12,453 nt of DNA from a virus (taxonomy: Duplodnaviria > Heunggongvirae > Uroviricota > Caudoviricetes): IMG/VR virus record IMGVR_UViG_2548876944_000018; one strand, written 5' to 3'. Each line of letters opens with the position of its first letter. The first letter of the stretch is position 1. Positions 1 through 11,002 of this stretch are shown here, piece by piece. The position numbers and the translations under genes are program-made. Under the pieces are notes generated by a model. The model was not told the DNA's origin. It made no database searches and saw only the letters and a list, made by a program, of their open reading frames with translations.

Positions 1-411
1 ATGTGGACGGCTGCTACCGATGCATGGAACGATCCGACCAACGTCACCACAGGACAAAAGATCGCTGCTGCTGCATTGGCTGTTTCTCAGAACATGGGGA
101 ACATTGCAAACATCAAGTCTACTAATGTTAGCGGTATGGCTCATGATGGTATCGATAACATCCCGCGTGAGGGTACATGGTTGCTTGATAAGGGTGAACG
201 AGTAGTTGATCAGCGTACTAACGGCGATTTGAAAGACTTCCTTGCTGCTCAAAAATCAGGTGGTGGTAACTCTCAGCCGATTGAAGTTAATGCGCCTTTG
301 AACATTAACGGCAACGTTAATAGCTCAGACAAGATGGTCATGGATGCTATCAAACGTCACGCTAAGTTAGTTGCTCAGGCGGTAGAAGACGCACAGCGTC
401 GTAAGATGTAA
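1..411 (+). CDS. Probable 3' end of a large tail gene, most likely the tape measure protein (partial at the window edge)
   Basis: Open frame from base 1 to TAA at 409-411. It sits directly upstream of the minor-tail/J-like genes, where lambda-like operons place the tape measure gene. Gly/Asn/Ala-rich sequence with no recognisable catalytic motif. The ATG at position 1 may be coincidental; the true start is probably upstream of the window. Confidence 0.45.
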   Translation: MWTAATDAWNDPTNVTTGQKIAAAALAVSQNMGNIANIKSTNVSGMAHDGIDNIPREGTWLLDKGERVVDQRTNGDLKDFLAAQKSGGGNSQPIEVNAPLNINGNVNSSDKMVMDAIKRHAKLVAQAVEDAQRRKM

Positions 412-416
412 TTAAA

Positions 417-460
417 AGCCCCCATAGTCATAAATAATCATAAAACTATGGGGGCTTTTC
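417..460 (+). terminator. Intergenic stem-loop, terminator or attenuator
   Basis: Perfect 12-bp inverted repeat AGCCCCCATAGT (417-428) / ACTATGGGGGCT (445-456) around a 16-nt loop, followed by a short T run (CTTTTC). The 3' arm contains the GGGGG Shine-Dalgarno of the next gene, whose ATG is at 462. Confidence 0.5.
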
Positions 461-461
461 T

Positions 462-1022
462 ATGTTCAAATCCAAGAATATTAAAATCACAGATTTTACT
501 CTTAAATCAAAACAGCCTTTCTTCAAGGCGCAATCTATTTCTGGTAAGTTCCAGCGTCGCTTTACTGGTATTCATTTTTATGAAGCAGAATTTACAGCTA
601 ATTTCATGGCTCAGGATATTAACGAAGTAAAAGAATTTGTAGCACGTCACCTTTTTGGTCGTCCTTTTAGTGTGCCACTGTCTTACTTTTCAAAATATAC
701 AGGTGATGTACGCCAGATGGTAACGGCTGCTGCTGGTACTGCTCGCGGTGGGCGTAAGGTAAGACTCTCCAACTTCACCGGAACACTGAAAGCGGGAACT
801 ATCATCCAGTTTGAGAACCACAAGAAAATCTACACGATCACCGAAGACGTGAAATCAGGTGGTGAAATGAAACTCTTCCCTAACTTGCGTCAGAACGTCC
901 TGGCTGGTGAGGTGATCAAGTATCAGAACGTTGAGGGTGAATTTCTTCTCAAAACTGAAAACATCGATTGGAAGATCGCCCAGATTGGCAAGATGAAATT
1001 CGAATTAGTGGAGAATGTATAA
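462..1022 (+). CDS. Minor tail protein (distal tail / gpM position), 186 aa
   Basis: ATG at 462 with GGGGG 6 nt upstream. The stop TAA (1020-1022) overlaps the next ATG as TAATG, indicating translational coupling. Function is assigned from position between the tape measure and J-like genes only; no motif was recognised. Confidence 0.6.
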   Translation: MFKSKNIKITDFTLKSKQPFFKAQSISGKFQRRFTGIHFYEAEFTANFMAQDINEVKEFVARHLFGRPFSVPLSYFSKYTGDVRQMVTAAAGTARGGRKVRLSNFTGTLKAGTIIQFENHKKIYTITEDVKSGGEMKLFPNLRQNVLAGEVIKYQNVEGEFLLKTENIDWKIAQIGKMKFELVENV

Positions 1023-1675
1023 TGGCAACTATTCAGGAATCATTCAGCAAACTATGCACTAATCTGGACTTCATCGAGGTATACAACGACCAGACAGGTC
1101 AGAATGTGTCTAGATTGACTCTACCGCAGCTTTTTTCTACTGGATCGATGTTTCACATTATCGAAGTGATTACCGCGTCAGGGGACGTTCTACGGCTTAC
1201 AGATGGGTATTTCGATTTGGACTATAACGGATTTACGTATCTCGCAACGGGTGATTTTCTTCAAATCTCATCGAATACCGAAGAGAAGGAGATCAACAAC
1301 AACGGGATTAACGTAACCGTTTCTAACGTTCGCGAAGAATACATTACTCTCATTCGAAACAAGCAATTCGATAAATCCGATGTGAAAATCGAGATGGTTT
1401 TCCTTAACCCCAACACGGGCAAGGTTGAAACCACTTACCCTGTTTTCCGTGGGGTAGTCGATTCCATCGGTATTAACATCGAACATGAAGATGATGAGTG
1501 TAAAAACGAATCAGAATTTCAGCTTAATAGTATCTGGGAAGTTCTAGATAAAAACGCTCGTAGTCATGCCTCCGATGGTATCCACCGATCCTATGCCGGA
1601 AACGAGAATGATCTATTCTTCTCTCGTGCCGGGAAGTGGAATAGCGAAAGCCGCTGGCACTCGTCTAAAAAATAA
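1022..1675 (+). CDS. Minor tail protein (gpL position), 217 aa
   Basis: The track ORF 968-1675 begins with TTG. The ATG at 1022 has GGAGAA 6 nt upstream and overlaps the preceding stop (TAATG). Size and position resemble lambda gpL, but no Fe-S cysteine cluster is visible, so the function is positional. Confidence 0.6.
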   Translation: MATIQESFSKLCTNLDFIEVYNDQTGQNVSRLTLPQLFSTGSMFHIIEVITASGDVLRLTDGYFDLDYNGFTYLATGDFLQISSNTEEKEINNNGINVTVSNVREEYITLIRNKQFDKSDVKIEMVFLNPNTGKVETTYPVFRGVVDSIGINIEHEDDECKNESEFQLNSIWEVLDKNARSHASDGIHRSYAGNENDLFFSRAGKWNSESRWHSSKK

Positions 1676-1697
1676 GACTGAAACTAAATGGCACACT

Positions 1698-1744
1698 AAA
1701 GCCCTCAATAAATATAGGAGAGATTCTTTATTTTTGAGGGCTTT
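1698..1744 (+). terminator. Intergenic stem-loop upstream of the homing endonuclease gene
   Basis: Perfect 11-bp inverted repeat AAAGCCCTCAA (1698-1708) / TTGAGGGCTTT (1734-1744) with an AT-rich ~25-nt loop that contains AGGAGAG. The 3' arm contains the GAGGG nearest the ATG at 1750. Only a weak T tract follows. Confidence 0.5.
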
Positions 1745-1749
1745 CCTAT

Positions 1750-2520
1750 ATGCAAAAATTCCATTACGTTTATCACACCACTATTAAATCTAATCGCTCT
1801 GGTAAAATCTATCATTACGTCGGAAAAAGAACAACCACAAATCTAGACGATGGATATGTGGGATCGGGTAAAGTTATTAAAATGATGAAGCGTAAAAATA
1901 AAGAATCAGAAACCCCGATATATGAATTTGAAGTTGTTCGTTCAAAATTGTTTGATACTGCCGAGGAAGCGTTTGAATGTGAAATCCTGTTAGTGGAGGC
2001 AGCACGCGAAAAATGGGGGCGTGGTGTATGTCTTAATATAGCTCCTGGTGGTGTCGGTGGTTTTGATGGTGGTGAAAATCATCCTTTTTACGGAAGAAAA
2101 CATACACCGGAATCTAGAGCTAAAATGTCGGCATCTCGAATGGGTGAAAAGAACCATCGCTATGGTAAACCTAGTGCAATGAGAGGCAAAAAAGTAACAA
2201 ACCCAGAAATATTAGCTAAATTATCGGCTGCTACTCGTGGAGAGAATAACCCCCGTTATGGTAAACCTGTATCAGAAGAAACACGCGAAAAGATTAGAAA
2301 AGCACATCTAGGGCGCAAGCGACCAGAAAGCTCTACCAAGAAATATACACATTCTATACGTATTGCTAAAGGTCAAGGCTGTTGGCAGCATTACGATGAA
2401 ATCCGGCGCGTGTGGATTGAAAACGGTAAACCCGGCGCGGTTAAATTGAGTCAAATCATGGTTAGCTTAGGCCATCCAAAATACAACCTTCGTAGAATGT
2501 ACGAAGACTTCAAGAAATAA
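1750..2520 (+). CDS. GIY-YIG family homing endonuclease with three NUMOD3 repeats (Seg / I-TevI-like), 256 aa
   Basis: N-terminal HYVY...YHYVGKRT (GIY-YIG-like module), FECEIL (compare FECSIL in I-TevI as recalled) and LNIAPGG (conserved Asn region). Three NUMOD3-type repeats follow: NHPFYGRKHTPESRAKMS, NHRYGKPSAMRGKK and NNPRYGKPVSEETREKIRKAH, then a basic C-terminal tail. The gene is visibly more AT-rich than the flanking tail genes. Confidence 0.85.
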   Translation: MQKFHYVYHTTIKSNRSGKIYHYVGKRTTTNLDDGYVGSGKVIKMMKRKNKESETPIYEFEVVRSKLFDTAEEAFECEILLVEAAREKWGRGVCLNIAPGGVGGFDGGENHPFYGRKHTPESRAKMSASRMGEKNHRYGKPSAMRGKKVTNPEILAKLSAATRGENNPRYGKPVSEETREKIRKAHLGRKRPESSTKKYTHSIRIAKGQGCWQHYDEIRRVWIENGKPGAVKLSQIMVSLGHPKYNLRRMYEDFKK

Positions 2521-2566
2521 TCCCTTCTCCCTAAGCCTAGTAAATAACAGCATGGAGGTATTCAAC

Positions 2567-2986
2567 ATGCTAAAAACTAGGCTTATCACCGATTACATCA
2601 ATTCTTTAATAGGTCAGGAGTTCGTTCAAGGCGAGAATGATTGCAATATAATTGCATGTAAGATCATCGATATTCTCGCTGGTACTGACCTATATAATTC
2701 TCTTTATAAAAAATATTCAACGAAAGAAGAAGGCTTGAAAATCTGCAAAGAATTAAGCGGATACACAAATATCCTTCAACCAATTAAGAAACATTTCAAA
2801 CTAGTCACTGATGATTTACAGGACGGCGACTTACTGGTCACAGCCCACAAATTAGGAAACCGCAAATATTATTCCGTAGTTCCTCATTATTCCGGTTATG
2901 GCCTCGTTGAAGAAGATGGTATCTGGATGACCATTCCTGTTTCAGACATTGACTATGAACAAGTTTATAGATTCGGGGGTGAATAA
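2567..2986 (+). CDS. Tail assembly/tail tip protein (gpK position), possibly NlpC/P60-like, about 139 aa
   Basis: The track ORF starts at 2552, but the ATG at 2567 has GGAGGT 7 nt upstream. Its stop overlaps the J-like ATG (TAATG at 2984-2988). It contains a DC dipeptide (GENDCNII) and downstream His residues, loosely reminiscent of a Cys-His peptidase. The call is mostly positional. Confidence 0.5.
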   Translation: MLKTRLITDYINSLIGQEFVQGENDCNIIACKIIDILAGTDLYNSLYKKYSTKEEGLKICKELSGYTNILQPIKKHFKLVTDDLQDGDLLVTAHKLGNRKYYSVVPHYSGYGLVEEDGIWMTIPVSDIDYEQVYRFGGE

Positions 2987-5900
2987 TGGGATTTGAAATA
3001 TTAGTAGGCGCGGTTATTGCTGGTGCGTCTGCTGGGATGGCTGCTGCTGCAACATTTTCTGTTATGACCGCAGTCGCTATCGGTATGGCTGCTGGTGCAA
3101 TGACCTTGATCGCTTCCACTGTAGGCGCACCAAAAACACCGAAAGTACAAAGCTCAGATAATGCGGTGACACTAGGAACATCAAACGATCCGAAAGCGGT
3201 GATACCAGTCGTTTTCGGTACTACCCGCACTGGCACAAACTGTGTTTACAAAGCAGTTTCTAAGCAAGAAAACAATAAGCTAGTGCAAATCTTCTCTGTA
3301 GCCGAGGGTGAAATCGACCATTACAAAGCACTCTTTATTGATAATAAAAACGTTCTCATTAGCCAGAATATGACAATTCGTGATGGCATTCTCGATAAAG
3401 GAAACATTAAAGACGAATACCGCAAAGTGTTAGAAGTCGAGTTTCGCACTGGTAAAAATCCTAACACTGCATTGGATCTGGCTAAACATCATTTGGGCGC
3501 AGATTGGGATGATCGGTATCAGGGTAACGGCATTGCGACCATGTGTATTGTGTTACGTCGTGACGATAAATCTTTGGCTGCTGGTGTTGATATCCTTCAA
3601 CCAAATAGCCAAGTGGCAGTCGATGTTATGGGCTTAAAAATCCGTAACCTCGAAACCAATGCTATTGAGGCAAGCACTAACGGCGTGGACCAGATTTTCC
3701 ATTATCTGACAAATACAAAGTATGGTCTTAGTGTACCGATTGAAAATATTAACGTTGATTCATTCCTGAAAGTGCGTAAACAAGTACGCCAGATGGACCT
3801 ACATTCCAACGGTGCATGTGATCCGAACGCCAGCTTTAAAGAGAACTTGACCAGTCTTATGCAGACTTTCGGCGGGGTAATGTTCGAATCCTTCGGAAGA
3901 ATTACCCTGAAACTGGATGCTCCTGATATTGTTAAGCATACCTTCAATGAAGACAATATCATGATGGGTAAGGTATCACTGAAAACAGGTGGCACTAACG
4001 GTTATTTCAATACCATTAACGCGATGTATCAAGAACCATCAATCGACTATTCAGAGCAAATGCTACGTTATCCGGCTGATGCTGAAAACGATGCTACTAT
4101 TCGTCAAGATGGTCGAATTATCGCTAAAGATATTGAATATCGTTTTGTTAAGTCTAAAGCCCAGATTGATAAACTAGCGAGTGTAGAACGAAATAAATCT
4201 CGTATCACTCAGGTTATCAGCTTTATGACTACTGACGCATTCACTGCCGAAGTGTGGGATGTTATTAGCGTTACCTATGATGAATTGAAACTGAATAATT
4301 CACTTTGGCGCATTACTGCAATTGATCGTTCTATTGATTCTGGTATTGCTGGGATGATGACTATCACCGCTACAGAATATAATTCTCAGGTTTATACTGA
4401 CCTGAACTATGCGGCGACTCCAGACAATAGACCTACTGGTTTACCGGATTCAATGACAGTACAGAAGCCTACTAATTTCAGAATTAAGGCAACTGGTGAG
4501 ACAATCCACGGTAAAAACGTAACTTTGACATGGGATGCACCGGAAGATTTCAACCGTTATGGTTTCCAGATTGATTATCGTGTGAGTGGATCACCTAACT
4601 GGATTAAGCTGGGACAGACTTCACAGCAAATTTTCAATATCAATGCACTGGCAAAAGATCGCTCCTACGATTACCGCGTTTGTGCTTTCGGTATTATTGC
4701 TCGTTCCGAATGGGTGGAACTGGTTAACCAGAATCCTACTGTTACCTATGAATTGCCTACGCCAGTGATCCGCATCAAAAATCAGGGTAGTTCACCTGGT
4801 ACTTTCGAAGGCAATGATCTGATTATCGAATGGGAAAATCAGCAACAATTAGATGTGATGATCAACGGTGAAGCTAACAAGTTTAGTGACCTGTTTGAAG
4901 CATACATTATCAAGGTAACTAACAAGGCTGGTAAGTCTATTCAGTACCGTACCCGCGATCCTGAATCATGGACTTATACGCTTGATATGAACCAGTTTAA
5001 CGGCCTTTCGCGTCAATTGACGGTAGAAGTATCCGTTAAGGGCTATAACAACTCAGAGAGCGCCCCAGCGCGTTTAGTGGCTATCAACCCACAACATAAG
5101 CCGATGAAAGGTTTTAGTGCGCGTGGTGGCTTTAATACTGCGTTTGTTAGCTGGGCGGATGACGTAGAACATGACTATGCAGGGTCAATCATTCAGTATG
5201 CAACCGATAACACTTTCTCCGATGCAAGGGCAGTGACTACCAATAGCGTTAGTCATACTTCCTTTGATTTGGCTGACGGTGATTATTATATCCGTGGTGC
5301 TCACTATGATATTTTCGGTATGGATGATGCTGTTTGGTCCGAACCGTATTTCATGCAAATGAAATCTACCATTAGCTGGGACGATCAGGACAAAGAAGCA
5401 CTGGAAGACCTGATCGGTTTACAAGATCGATTAGATGAAACTATCGCGGATGCTATTAAGCAAGCTGGCGCTAATGCCGATGCTAAAATTGATGCAATGC
5501 ATAAACAGATTACTACCGAGACAGGGCAGACGGTCCAAGCCTCAGCCGATACTCTCAAGAGTCTGATTGCTACCAGTGAGCAAGCCAGCGCAACTAAGAT
5601 TGATCAGGTTAAAGCTGAACTGAAAGGCGATATCACCAAAGAAGTTAGCGCATCCGCTACTACCCTGAAACAAGCAATTGCTACCAGTGAGGCAGCAAGC
5701 GCAAGTAAGATTGATCAAGTTCGGGTAGAAATGGATGGCAAGATTGCTGGTGTGAATCAGGAAGCAGATGTAAAAATCGATGCTTTGAAGGGAACCATTA
5801 ACAGCAAATATAATCTGGCAGTTAATGCAGATGGTCGCGTGGCTGGTATTCATATGAGCGCAACCAATGATCCGGCAGAACCGACAAGAATCATCTTTAC

Positions 5901-6732
5901 GGCTGATAAAATCGCGGTAGCTCCACAAGACGGATCCGAAGTTTGTCCGTTTGGCATCGAAGATAACAAAGTTTATCTTGATAATGCGATGATTCGTAAT
6001 GCTGCAATTGGCACAGCCCAGATTAGTGATGCGGCTATTACCACGGCTAAGATCGGCACAGCCCAGATTAACGGCGCTCACATCCAACACGCACAGATCG
6101 GAACGGGTCATATCATTGATGGCTCTATCGATAATGCTAAAATTGGTAACTATATCCAGTCTTATAACTGGAATGGTAACGATGGATGGTATATCGGCAA
6201 AGATGGCACTTGTCATTTTAGACACGCTAATATTCGTGGTCATTTGGTGGCTGATTCCGGCGAAATGAACAACGTAACGATTAATTCAAGTTGCCGCATT
6301 TTGGGTATGCTTGATGCTAATCAGGTGCGTGGTGACTTCGTGAAAGTGGTTGGTAGGAGTTTCCCACATCGTCAACCAAACTGGCCTGATGGTGCAATCA
6401 CTGTAAGGGTCGAAGATGATCATCCATTCGATCGCCAAATAGTGATTCCAGCGATTCATCATAACGGGTCTGTTCGTCGTGGCGAAAGTAGCGATCATTG
6501 GGATACTTGCCGACTAATCGTTAAGAAAAATGGTGGTGTTCTATATGATCGCACTGCAACTTCTGGCTGTATGTACAGTGGAGTTATTGACATGCCAGCC
6601 GGACACGGGGCAGTAACAATGACTTTTGAAGTTTACTGTAAGGGCGTTAACAACTATAACCCAAGTGCATATATCAGCGATCTAACGGTAATGGTAACTA
6701 AGAAAGCCGCTACTGGTATTTCTGTTTCTTAA
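2986..6732 (+). CDS. J: Host specificity protein J-like central tail fiber / tail tip protein, 1248 aa
   Basis: A 3.7-kb ORF at the end of the tail operon with a GGGGG Shine-Dalgarno. The middle contains fibronectin-III-like segments (for example NVTLTWDAPEDF...YDYRVCAFG). The C-terminal ~130 aa contain DDHPFDRQIV, VIDMPAG and MVTKKAATGISVS, which closely match the lambda gpJ C-terminal receptor-binding region as I recall it (DDHPFDRQIV, IVDMPAG, MVIKKQALGISVV). Confidence 0.9.
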   Translation: MGFEILVGAVIAGASAGMAAAATFSVMTAVAIGMAAGAMTLIASTVGAPKTPKVQSSDNAVTLGTSNDPKAVIPVVFGTTRTGTNCVYKAVSKQENNKLVQIFSVAEGEIDHYKALFIDNKNVLISQNMTIRDGILDKGNIKDEYRKVLEVEFRTGKNPNTALDLAKHHLGADWDDRYQGNGIATMCIVLRRDDKSLAAGVDILQPNSQVAVDVMGLKIRNLETNAIEASTNGVDQIFHYLTNTKYGLSVPIENINVDSFLKVRKQVRQMDLHSNGACDPNASFKENLTSLMQTFGGVMFESFGRITLKLDAPDIVKHTFNEDNIMMGKVSLKTGGTNGYFNTINAMYQEPSIDYSEQMLRYPADAENDATIRQDGRIIAKDIEYRFVKSKAQIDKLASVERNKSRITQVISFMTTDAFTAEVWDVISVTYDELKLNNSLWRITAIDRSIDSGIAGMMTITATEYNSQVYTDLNYAATPDNRPTGLPDSMTVQKPTNFRIKATGETIHGKNVTLTWDAPEDFNRYGFQIDYRVSGSPNWIKLGQTSQQIFNINALAKDRSYDYRVCAFGIIARSEWVELVNQNPTVTYELPTPVIRIKNQGSSPGTFEGNDLIIEWENQQQLDVMINGEANKFSDLFEAYIIKVTNKAGKSIQYRTRDPESWTYTLDMNQFNGLSRQLTVEVSVKGYNNSESAPARLVAINPQHKPMKGFSARGGFNTAFVSWADDVEHDYAGSIIQYATDNTFSDARAVTTNSVSHTSFDLADGDYYIRGAHYDIFGMDDAVWSEPYFMQMKSTISWDDQDKEALEDLIGLQDRLDETIADAIKQAGANADAKIDAMHKQITTETGQTVQASADTLKSLIATSEQASATKIDQVKAELKGDITKEVSASATTLKQAIATSEAASASKIDQVRVEMDGKIAGVNQEADVKIDALKGTINSKYNLAVNADGRVAGIHMSATNDPAEPTRIIFTADKIAVAPQDGSEVCPFGIEDNKVYLDNAMIRNAAIGTAQISDAAITTAKIGTAQINGAHIQHAQIGTGHIIDGSIDNAKIGNYIQSYNWNGNDGWYIGKDGTCHFRHANIRGHLVADSGEMNNVTINSSCRILGMLDANQVRGDFVKVVGRSFPHRQPNWPDGAITVRVEDDHPFDRQIVIPAIHHNGSVRRGESSDHWDTCRLIVKKNGGVLYDRTATSGCMYSGVIDMPAGHGAVTMTFEVYCKGVNNYNPSAYISDLTVMVTKKAATGISVS
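5539..5760 (+). repeat. Imperfect tandem duplication of about 111 bp (37 codons) inside the J-like gene
   Basis: ATTGCTACCAGTGAG occurs at 5566-5580 and 5677-5691, and AAGATTGATCA(G/A)GTT at 5596-5610 and 5707-5721, both with a 111-nt offset. The peptide units are ASADTLKSLIATSEQASATKIDQVKAELKGDITKE and VSASATTLKQAIATSEAASASKIDQVRVEMDGKIAG. Confidence 0.75.
6001..6150 (+). repeat. Ten consecutive pentapeptide repeats (A-x-I-x-x) inside the J-like gene
   Basis: Translation reads AAIGT AQISD AAITT AKIGT AQING AHIQH AQIGT GHIID GSIDN AKIGN, with Ile at a strict 5-residue period. GGCACAGCCCAGATTA is repeated at 6010-6025 and 6055-6070. Confidence 0.7.
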
Positions 6733-9273: not shown

Positions 9274-10953
9274 TTAAATTCCAAATTCTTGTAATGGACC
9301 TGGTATTTCTTCTTCTGGTTTCCAGTTCTTATCTGTCAGCATGTCTAAACATGGATGCAGAACAAGCCCGTTACTCTCCAGAATCTGCCTATCATTGATA
9401 GTCTTCAAATCAACGAAGATCCGGCCTTTCCTCGGTCCTCTTGAATTTTCTATTACAACTCTCTGGGTCTTGCCATCGATGTATTCCAGTACAAACAAGT
9501 TTTTGTACTTGTCAATCCTGCTACACCCGATCCGTTTTAGAGCTTGCTTAATCTTAAACCGGACCTTAATGCGATCCTCGTTGTAAACATCTTCTAAATC
9601 AAATTCTGCGAGCTTCTCCCAGCCTTGAGAGTCAACAGAATACATTTCCTCTTCTGCCATCTTAAGTTGATTGTAGAGTGTTTCACGCTCGCTATTGAGG
9701 GTAGTAATCTGATCGGCTAGCTCCTTCGTTGCTCCTGTCATAGCAGAAAGGGTAATCAGGTTATCAATCTTGCGTGATATTTCATCAATCTGTACTTTCA
9801 AAGCCGGAACCGGATTAGCCTTATCTTCAGCAATCCAGATTTTATCAGCCAGCAATTGCAATACAGCTTTCTCTAATTGGTCGCCGCGAAAACTCCAGTT
9901 TGTATGCACACATTCAATACGACTAGAGCGCATTGCATCGCATGAATAACGATATTGGTTAGGCCGTCTGTTTGTTCCTTTCACCTTAACCATAGCGGAA
10001 CCGCAATGTTCACATTTCAATAGACCAACACCACTAAGCAAGGGAATAGGTTTAGCTTCTTCTTTGTCTCCAAAGTTACATGCTCTAACACCAATGCTTT
10101 TCTTAAGGTGATAAAACTCAGCGTCATCTAGCACACGAGGATAATAATCCTTTAACTCATACTTAACGCCATCTACAGAGATTTCCTTGATACCAATCAA
10201 AGCGCGGGTATGGAACAACCTTTCAATCATTGCCCGTGACCAGTTTGAATGCCTCTTGTGACTTGCGGCTGGTGGTGGTGTGTATGTCGCGTTAAGGTGA
10301 TCCAGTATCTCGGCGGTTGACCGTCCATTCCTGCGTAATTCCACAACTTCCTGAACAATAGGGAAGAAGACCGGATGAGGAAGCACATAACCAGATGTGG
10401 TATCAGTCCACCACATATTCTTTCCAATTTCCTCGATTGCAACAGCCGGATTTTGTGGATTTTCTTGATGAGCTTTAATCTTAATCAGTGCGCTTGAGTT
10501 AGTACGATTGCGCTTAGTCTGGCTTTCCTCATTACCACGGATGAATAAAAGGATGGAGAACATCAGGTCCATCGGGTTAGCGGTAACAGTATCAAGCGAG
10601 TAGATCTTGTTATCCATGCCAGTAACAATGGTTATCCCCCTACGGATGATTGAAAGGAATAACTCCTGCGCACTGACAATATCGGCACGGGATAAACGGT
10701 CCAAGTTTTCGATGAATAGCCAGCTACCAACAGGAACGGATCTACCTATTGCATCAAGGAAACGAGATAGCGCCCCTGTTTTGGAGTTAGCACCCTTAAA
10801 CGCAGATACACCCAGATCCTGATAATCATTTACCAGTTCAAGGTCATACTTTACCGCAATCTCTCTAGCCATCCTGATTTGTCGTTCATAACTCGAACCA
10901 TCATTCTGACGCATAGACGAGAAGCGAATATACGAATACAGTTTAGTTTTCAT
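9274..10953 (-). CDS. Large serine recombinase (serine integrase family), about 559 aa
   Basis: N-terminal resolvase-type catalytic motif YSYIRFSSMRQ...SYERQ with the nucleophile Ser near residue 10. A Cys-rich zinc-ribbon segment (CEHCGSAM...YRYSCDAMRSSRIECVH) and a coiled-coil region (ALKVQIDEISRKIDNLITL...) follow. The track start is TTG at 10968; the ATG at 10953 is preferred. Confidence 0.9.
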   Translation of the reverse strand: MKTKLYSYIRFSSMRQNDGSSYERQIRMAREIAVKYDLELVNDYQDLGVSAFKGANSKTGALSRFLDAIGRSVPVGSWLFIENLDRLSRADIVSAQELFLSIIRRGITIVTGMDNKIYSLDTVTANPMDLMFSILLFIRGNEESQTKRNRTNSSALIKIKAHQENPQNPAVAIEEIGKNMWWTDTTSGYVLPHPVFFPIVQEVVELRRNGRSTAEILDHLNATYTPPPAASHKRHSNWSRAMIERLFHTRALIGIKEISVDGVKYELKDYYPRVLDDAEFYHLKKSIGVRACNFGDKEEAKPIPLLSGVGLLKCEHCGSAMVKVKGTNRRPNQYRYSCDAMRSSRIECVHTNWSFRGDQLEKAVLQLLADKIWIAEDKANPVPALKVQIDEISRKIDNLITLSAMTGATKELADQITTLNSERETLYNQLKMAEEEMYSVDSQGWEKLAEFDLEDVYNEDRIKVRFKIKQALKRIGCSRIDKYKNLFVLEYIDGKTQRVVIENSRGPRKGRIFVDLKTINDRQILESNGLVLHPCLDMLTDKNWKPEEEIPGPLQEFGI

Positions 10954-10960
10954 ACCATTT

Positions 10961-11002
10961 CCAAACAAAAACGCCCCTACCGCGTATTATAACGATAGGG
11001 GC
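10961..11002 (-). terminator. Rho-independent terminator immediately upstream of the recombinase gene, with TATAAT in its loop
   Basis: On the minus strand: GCCCCTA(T)CG, loop TTATAATACG, CG(G)TAGGGGC, then GTTTTTGTTTGG. The T tract ends about 8 nt before the recombinase ATG. Confidence 0.6.

Follow-up and report, generated by a model that had tools for sequence, protein, structure and literature searches.

The 12,453-nt stretch of phage DNA analyzed here (IMG/VR record IMGVR_UViG_2548876944_000018, Caudoviricetes; the whole stretch is called the window) carries a putative homing endonuclease gene between two tail genes of a temperate Escherichia coli prophage. The open reading frame (ORF) was found at 1750–2520 (+) and encodes 256 amino acids; it lies within 1698–2566, the interval to which the initial annotation had assigned such a gene. 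Its upstream neighbor (1022–1675, +) occupies the gpL position and encodes a hub N-terminal domain (DUF2163/PF09931; Pfam E = 8.7e-6; PHROG 2048, 'tail protein'; RefSeq annotation of an identical record). The downstream neighbor (2567–2986, +) occupies the gpK position and encodes a DUF6950 protein (Pfam PF22262, E = 5.7e-12), ATG 2567 being the start codon according to RefSeq. As had been proposed, the endonuclease gene overlaps neither flank, leaving gaps of 74 nt upstream and 46 nt downstream. Neighboring gene pairs overlap at 1019–1022 and at 2986, and the only sizeable intergenic gap in the tail-tip block 462–6732 is the insertion point of the endonuclease.

Relatives lacking the insert were sought in E. 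coli chromosomes, because sequenced phages offered only a distant one. Window positions 1–4000 gave no megablast match among the sequenced phages, and tblastn with the hub protein returned a single distant phage, DCP80. A hub-protein scan of the GTDB species genomes yielded no match. We screened 5,426 complete E. coli genomes, 56 of which carry this tail module. The endonuclease cassette is present in six of them, in one copy each and always in the same slot, and 51 have an empty slot; strain BS74R-D has both. The flanks of the occupied and empty loci are about 95–98% identical. Alignment to the empty sites defined the insertion point, as the initial annotation had advised, and delimited an 845-bp cassette at 1676–2520 (+), composed of a 74-nt leader and the endonuclease ORF. 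It starts directly past the TAA of the hub gene (1673–1675), which forms the left boundary, and ends with the endonuclease's own TAA. In loci L002 and L006, the cassette is 848 bp long. Both flanking ORFs are intact around it, and it was seen on at least four different left-flank haplotypes. Five further enterobacterial loci, including several in Salmonella assemblies, have homologues of 54–79% identity in the corresponding slot. The exact presence and absence at one site (6 versus 51) most strongly supports the proposal that a free-standing mobile endonuclease had invaded a structural operon, and the domain architecture of the protein and the diverged homologues in the slot support it as well. 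With 51 empty slots among 56 genomes, the gene is evidently not shared by all relatives. The two copies in BS74R-D belong to related prophages, the occupied L002 (NZ_CP063332.1, 32344–38346) and the empty L039 (439974–443373).

Two further expectations fared less well. The tail genes had been supposed to be contiguous and translationally coupled when the insert is missing, but the empty sites of this phage group keep a conserved 46-nt spacer. The insert had also been described as more AT-rich than its neighbors. This is true, by a narrow margin, of the upstream side (40.0% GC against 42.8%), and fails downstream, where the DUF6950 gene is more AT-rich (36.7% GC). The tail module without the insert has 42.9% GC. 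At third codon positions, the GC fraction of the endonuclease gene (0.30) is the lowest of the five genes.

The boundary of the cassette is ambiguous by up to 9 nt, because a 9-bp direct repeat is present at both ends. The left copy, AAAAAATAA, is at 1667–1675 (+), and the right copy, AAGAAATAA, is at 2512–2520 (+), where it also encodes the two final Lys residues and the stop of the endonuclease. The repeat has the consensus AARAAATAA; the match is 8/9 in the window and perfect in the Salmonella loci L022 and L025, which have AAGAAATAA at both ends. Through this repeat, the hub and endonuclease ORFs both end in Lys–Lys–stop. A direct repeat, imperfect to perfect, that bounds an insert might be taken for the target-site duplication of a transposon-like or other non-homing insertion. 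We regard this explanation as hardly credible. The cassette has neither a transposase nor terminal inverted repeats, and the endonuclease is its sole ORF. It is single-copy and confined to one site, and an Rfam search over 1300–3000 gave no family match, group I introns included. The coincidence of the repeat with the Lys–Lys–stop ends of both ORFs fits microhomology at the original junction. The repeat is probably the microhomology scar of the founding insertion, and it would also allow precise deletion of the cassette.

The domain structure of the endonuclease had been predicted as GIY-YIG plus NUMOD3. The NUMOD3 part was confirmed: Pfam PF07460 has three matching stretches (E = 1.4e-20, with 73.4 bits where the cut-off is 20.4), covering residues 108–200 approximately (2071–2349, +). 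This block contains a direct DNA repeat (2118–2172 and 2214–2268), and RefSeq labels the whole protein 'NUMOD3 DNA-binding protein'. NCBIfam TIGR01453 matches the NUMOD3 region only, below its cut-off (35.1 against 56 bits). PHROG 314 and 655, both named 'homing endonuclease', match the protein at E = 3.9e-32. The PADLOC 'HEase' models match the N- and C-terminal parts, and one of them, PDLC03675, covers residues 211–255. The latter belong to a C-terminal helical domain (residues 201–256 and the stop codon; 2350–2520, +), which is presumed to bind DNA; the predicted local distance difference test (pLDDT) values of the structural model are only 51–67 in this domain. A sequence search of the PDB returned chance antibody matches only.

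The GIY-YIG part of the prediction held in profile–profile comparison and in fold, but not as a match to a standard hidden Markov model (HMM). The assignment rests on the first two, because none of the GIY-YIG models of Pfam (PF01541, PF19835) or NCBIfam matches, even at E ≤ 10, with the full protein or with residues 1–105. Using hhalign on residues 1–101, the endonuclease clade combined with Seg-like intermediates aligned with PF01541-positive proteins at a probability of 99.1% (E = 1.8e-18). For the clade alone, the probability was 99.2% with the 'NLDDGYxGSG' Seg-like intermediates (E = 7e-20) and 91% with the PF01541 group (E = 1e-6). Two of the intermediates barely reach the threshold of the Pfam SegE_GIY-YIG model (25.0–25.2 bits, cut-off 25). 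The predicted structure of the N-terminal domain displays the GIY-YIG alpha/beta fold. In an alignment of 34 database homologues, residues Y8, Y23, G25, E78, and N96 are conserved at 90% or more. By their position in the sequence, they correspond to the presumed GIY Tyr, the YIG Tyr and Gly, the catalytic Glu, and the Asn. These results support a divergent, SegE-like GIY-YIG nuclease domain at residues 1–105 (1750–2064, +), as predicted from profiles and the structural model.

The NUMOD3 block behaves as a recombining module. Between the window and L002, synonymous divergence (pS) reaches 0.77 in the NUMOD3 block, as against 0.17 and 0.14 in the N-terminal and C-terminal domains, respectively. 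Comparison of window positions 2071–2520 with L002, L006, L024, and L014 showed three blocks (nuclease, NUMOD3, and C-terminal) with different histories. L024 has a nuclease domain of the E. coli type and a C-terminal domain of the Salmonella type.

The leader of the cassette contains a hairpin at 1698–1744 (+). The initial annotation had correctly recorded its perfect 11-bp inverted repeat, in which 1698–1708 pairs with 1734–1744, but had placed it as a bracket around the insert; it is located inside the cassette. Within this outer stem, an inner stem (1710–1714/1729–1733) and further apical pairs extend the hairpin to about 19 pairs, with a folding energy of −23.5 kcal/mol and a z of −4.0 to −4.8. 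None of 200 shuffled sequences folded as well. The 3' arm holds the Shine–Dalgarno sequence of the endonuclease gene, GAGGG (1736–1740, +), 9 nt before ATG 1750. The hairpin is kept in all 11 distinct leaders (19 pairs by RNAalifold), with one compensatory change from G–C to A–U, which is probably a single event. The leaders of the diverged cassettes fold at −24.2 to −24.8 kcal/mol, and a 20-nt block of the leader is invariant while the synonymous sites of the ORF have diverged to pS values of 0.6–0.75. The hairpin most likely masks the endonuclease's ribosome-binding site. By analogy with T4 I-TevI, segB, and mobE, it would lower translation. No sigma-70-like promoter was found on the + strand of 1400–2800, and low, leaky translation from the late operon transcript appears to be the simplest reading.

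Three additional features of the leader were considered and set aside. A T4 late promoter in the loop was suggested by the octamer AATAAATA at 1707–1714, which matches TATAAATA at 7/8 positions; the window contains 16 such one-mismatch matches against 23.8 expected. The 3' side of the hairpin (1722–1735) has a 14-nt perfect complement in codons 49–53 of the endonuclease (1894–1907), for which a rough estimate of the chance expectation in 1.2 kb is about 0.003–0.01. The complement occurs in E. coli-type cassettes only and is absent from the Salmonella types; long-range pairing was not used as evidence. Leaders of the Salmonella type (L014, L016, L020, L022, and L025) contain a short upstream ORF about 35–20 nt before the endonuclease ATG. 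It has an AGGAG motif 5 nt before its ATG, comprises 19 codons in most cases and 39 in L020, begins in the hairpin loop, and crosses the 3' arm out of frame with the endonuclease. This ORF is missing from the E. coli-type leaders, the window included, and was dropped as a general feature.

The expression context also bears on the idea that the nuclease is mainly a weapon of the phage or lysogen, acting in marker exclusion or anti-phage defence and not in selfish spread. The Seg enzymes of T4 do cause marker exclusion of T2 (PMC2988022). The location in a late tail operon, the hairpin over the ribosome-binding site, and the failure to find an own promoter suggest that an uninduced lysogen would not produce the enzyme. 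The PADLOC matches were confined to models named 'HEase', no other model of this defence library matching at E ≤ 1, and marker exclusion is a by-product of homing that needs no separate mechanism. A primary role as a weapon is therefore very unlikely.

The left flank of the insertion point is a diversity hot spot. The last 19 codons and the stop codon of the hub gene (1616–1675, +) are hypervariable, with a mosaic of mostly synonymous differences. In nine E. coli alleles that share about 97% identity outside this patch, nucleotide diversity is 0.25 in the last 57 nt of the gene as compared with about 0.03 elsewhere in it. The corresponding pS values are 0.61 and 0.13, and those of nonsynonymous divergence (pN) are 0.14 and 0.002. 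The last 60 nt comprise 21 haplotypes in 24 loci and record at least eight recombination events. At −16, −13, −7, and −4, there are synonymous variants found exclusively or almost exclusively in occupied alleles. Between the occupied and empty copies of BS74R-D, 16 differences fall within the final 36 nt of the hub gene, against about 1.5% divergence elsewhere. An A at −7 was tried as a marker of occupied sites; it is found in 7/7 occupied and 3/17 empty E. coli-type loci, and it fails in the Salmonella loci L022 and L025. The pattern makes the hot spot a candidate recognition, cleavage, or co-conversion zone of the endonuclease. A target in the tail genes of endonuclease-free relatives, as initially suggested, is plausible and gains indirect support from this hot spot.

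A more specific scenario is an ongoing arms race in temperate phages of enterobacteria, of which the hot spot would be the footprint. Over many rounds, cleavage, short-patch conversion, and a selective advantage of uncuttable synonymous variants would diversify the target, and the endonuclease would swap its NUMOD3 and C-terminal modules to follow; the empty copy in BS74R-D would be a resistant allele. We put this forward tentatively and consider it doubtful. Raised divergence was also observed in the 5' part of the J-like tip gene, at 3170–3400 (about +650 to +900 nt relative to the junction), with 6–15 differences per 50 nt in most otherwise close alleles. This region may be a module boundary or the result of endonuclease-driven exchange.

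The right flank is nearly invariant and under a constraint of its own. It consists of the 46-nt spacer (2521–2566, +), which is also present at the empty sites. A conserved hairpin of the host operon (2532–2585, +; −20.1 kcal/mol, z = −3.6) encloses the Shine–Dalgarno sequence GGAGG and ATG 2567 of the DUF6950 gene. It is two-tiered, with an outer stem at 2532–2541/2576–2585 and an inner stem at about 2549–2554/2565–2570. Compensatory changes are seen in both tiers: from C–G to U–A in the outer stem of L009, and from G–C to U–A in the inner stem of the Salmonella loci. The occupation of the spacer by this hairpin, which is probably a translational control element, explains why the spacer exists and is conserved. 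The cassette is located exactly between the hub stop codon and the hairpin, which remains outside and intact.

Taken together, the segment 1676–2520 is best explained as a homing endonuclease cassette of the free-standing, 'intronless' kind represented by the T-even Seg genes, residing in a temperate, siphovirus-like E. coli prophage. We assign this reading, in which cleavage and homing would maintain the cassette, a probability of roughly 80%. Several observations weigh against it. Besides the silence of the GIY-YIG models, no residue can be aligned with R27, the catalytic Arg of I-TevI, the stretch opposite it being NLDDGY. Activity is not to be taken for granted for this reason. The subfamily has His or Arg two residues past the YIG Gly, and R27 of the window protein (His in relatives), which follows the YVG motif, might substitute for the I-TevI-type Arg, as judged by its position in the sequence. 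The occupancy is low, about 11%, although a route to precise loss through the 9-bp repeats fits this value and the cycle of gain and loss typical of such elements. In BS74R-D, occupied and empty copies coexist; either the enzyme is silent in lysogens or that empty site is resistant, and the strain is a natural test case for both. The hot spot is present in empty alleles too, and the occupied alleles do not have a single left-flank haplotype in common, which gives no sign of simple long co-conversion tracts. In T4, free-standing endonucleases often cleave hundreds of base pairs away from their own gene (PMC2988022), and the hot spot need not be the target.

Part of these observations would also be expected of a former homing endonuclease, now a decaying or domesticated NUMOD3 DNA-binding protein. 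The distribution would then go back to an ancient insertion that was later lost, time and again, by precise deletion between the 9-bp repeats. The missing HMM match, the unalignable Arg, the low occupancy, and the coexistence of both states in one strain are in line with this explanation, as are the direct repeats, most empty sites carrying the right-hand variant AAGAAATAA. The coding sequence argues against decay. The ratio of nonsynonymous to synonymous substitution (dN/dS) in the nuclease domain is 0.02–0.06, with synonymous sites near saturation, and the domain is under strong purifying selection. The two Tyr residues, the Glu, and the Asn are retained, and the ORF is intact in 14/14 occupied loci read. 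In addition, horizontal spread accounts more easily than inheritance alone for a cassette that is seen with several flank haplotypes and in loci of two or more host genera. We find a decayed or domesticated protein unlikely, and prefer an active homing cassette.

The homing cassette would operate as follows. The endonuclease gene would be transcribed passively within the late tail operon, by read-through, and its translation would be kept low by the leader hairpin that buries the Shine–Dalgarno sequence. If a phage with the cassette and a relative without it replicated together in one cell, the enzyme would cut the latter's allele in or close to the spacer or the hub gene's end. Repair by recombination, with the cassette-bearing genome as donor, would then copy in the cassette and some of its flank. 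Occasional loss may proceed via the 9-bp repeats. As the flanking reading frames and the downstream hairpin over the ribosome-binding site are left intact, the cassette should be close to neutral for the phage.

The + strand of 1–6732 is a siphovirus-type tail-tip operon. It begins with the end of the tape-measure gene (1–411, +) and a distal-tail-protein-like (Dit-like) gene (462–1022, +). The hub, endonuclease, and DUF6950 genes follow, and a J-like tip protein gene (2986–6732, +; 1,248 amino acids) closes the series. A prophage of E. coli PK8568 matches the window at 100% identity; it has terminase, portal, and capsid genes upstream and a serine recombinase adjoining a truncated hicB. In the window, a large serine recombinase gene is situated at the prophage end (9274–10968, −). 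The truncated hicB antitoxin gene, next to ydcR, abuts the prophage end (also in L004, 32094–32210), which suggests integration of the prophage into hicB. In strain 14EC017 (L007, 3497–4194; NZ_CP024134.1), an IS1A element splits the J-like gene just downstream of the occupied slot, and the prophage is probably defective for this reason.

Large lytic phages, T4 for example, are the textbook hosts of free-standing homing endonucleases. To our knowledge, the occurrence of such enzymes in temperate E. coli and Salmonella prophages is far less well documented. We found no description of this element in full-text literature searches on homing endonucleases, prophages, and tails in combination either with NUMOD3 or with GIY-YIG and temperate phages. 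Identifying the protein as a GIY-YIG enzyme of the Seg-like kind puts right the annotation of a family present in many E. coli, Shigella, and Salmonella assemblies. The cassette accounts for a sharp local indel in a tail operon that is otherwise conserved, and it is a candidate explanation for the diversity hot spot there. The near-isogenic occupied and empty prophages, both of which are found in one strain, offer a system for studying homing, resistance alleles, and hairpin-controlled translation. The enzyme itself is a candidate GIY-YIG nuclease of new specificity.

The closest known systems are the T-even Seg endonucleases (SegA–G, SegH), free-standing GIY-YIG enzymes that spread by 'intronless homing'. 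The nearest relatives in sequenced phages are T-even 'site-specific intron-like DNA endonucleases', with about 30% identity over the full length. The window protein and these Seg-like proteins have the C-terminal motif W..YDE...W...G.P......G(Y/F/H)P...M...F.K in common, its YDE part being FEK in one of the three T-even proteins. A 35%-identical relative adjoins a topoisomerase gene on a contig that also encodes a deoxycytidine monophosphate (dCMP) deaminase, a context that is taken to be T4-like. As with the Seg genes, the ORF is free-standing in an intergenic gap between conserved genes and shows presence/absence polymorphism among close relatives; the protein likewise starts with a GIY-YIG domain, and the C-terminal region after it is presumed to bind DNA. 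The differences lie first in the host, which is a temperate enterobacterial prophage with a serine recombinase and not a lytic T4-like myovirus, and in the placement of the cassette in a tail-tip operon. Furthermore, the nuclease domain is too divergent for PF01541 or PF19835, the linker has clear NUMOD3 repeats, and no embedded late promoter is evident. The T-even homologues inspected have no comparable leader hairpin sequestering the ribosome-binding site, and two of the three genes overlap their upstream neighbor.

I-TevI, encoded in the td intron of T4 (PDB 1LN0, 1MK0), offers the second comparison. Both proteins consist of a nuclease domain, an extended linker, and a small C-terminal domain, which binds DNA in I-TevI and presumably does so in the cassette protein. 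The linker of I-TevI contains a zinc finger and a minor-groove helix, whereas that of the cassette protein is made up of NUMOD3 repeats. The structural alignment gave 17% identity, with no alignable R27 counterpart, and the cassette gene stands outside any intron according to the Rfam search. Hairpins that sequester the ribosome-binding site have been documented for T4 I-TevI, I-TevII, I-TevIII, and segB, as well as for mobE of Aeh1 (PMC2988022), and the cassette gene is preceded by a probable one, as the I-TevI gene is by a documented one. In the T4 and Aeh1 cases as in ours, the 3' arm of a stable stem-loop holds the Shine–Dalgarno sequence about 8–9 nt before the AUG, and the gene is part of a long polycistronic late transcript. 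The T4 hairpins contain a late promoter, from which a shorter transcript arises that leaves the ribosome-binding site free; in the cassette, no promoter is detectable and the loop octamer AATAAATA occurs at chance level. On the basis of these sequence comparisons, the element would work like the T-even Seg enzymes, to which it appears distantly related, and it would share the modular plan of the I-TevI type.

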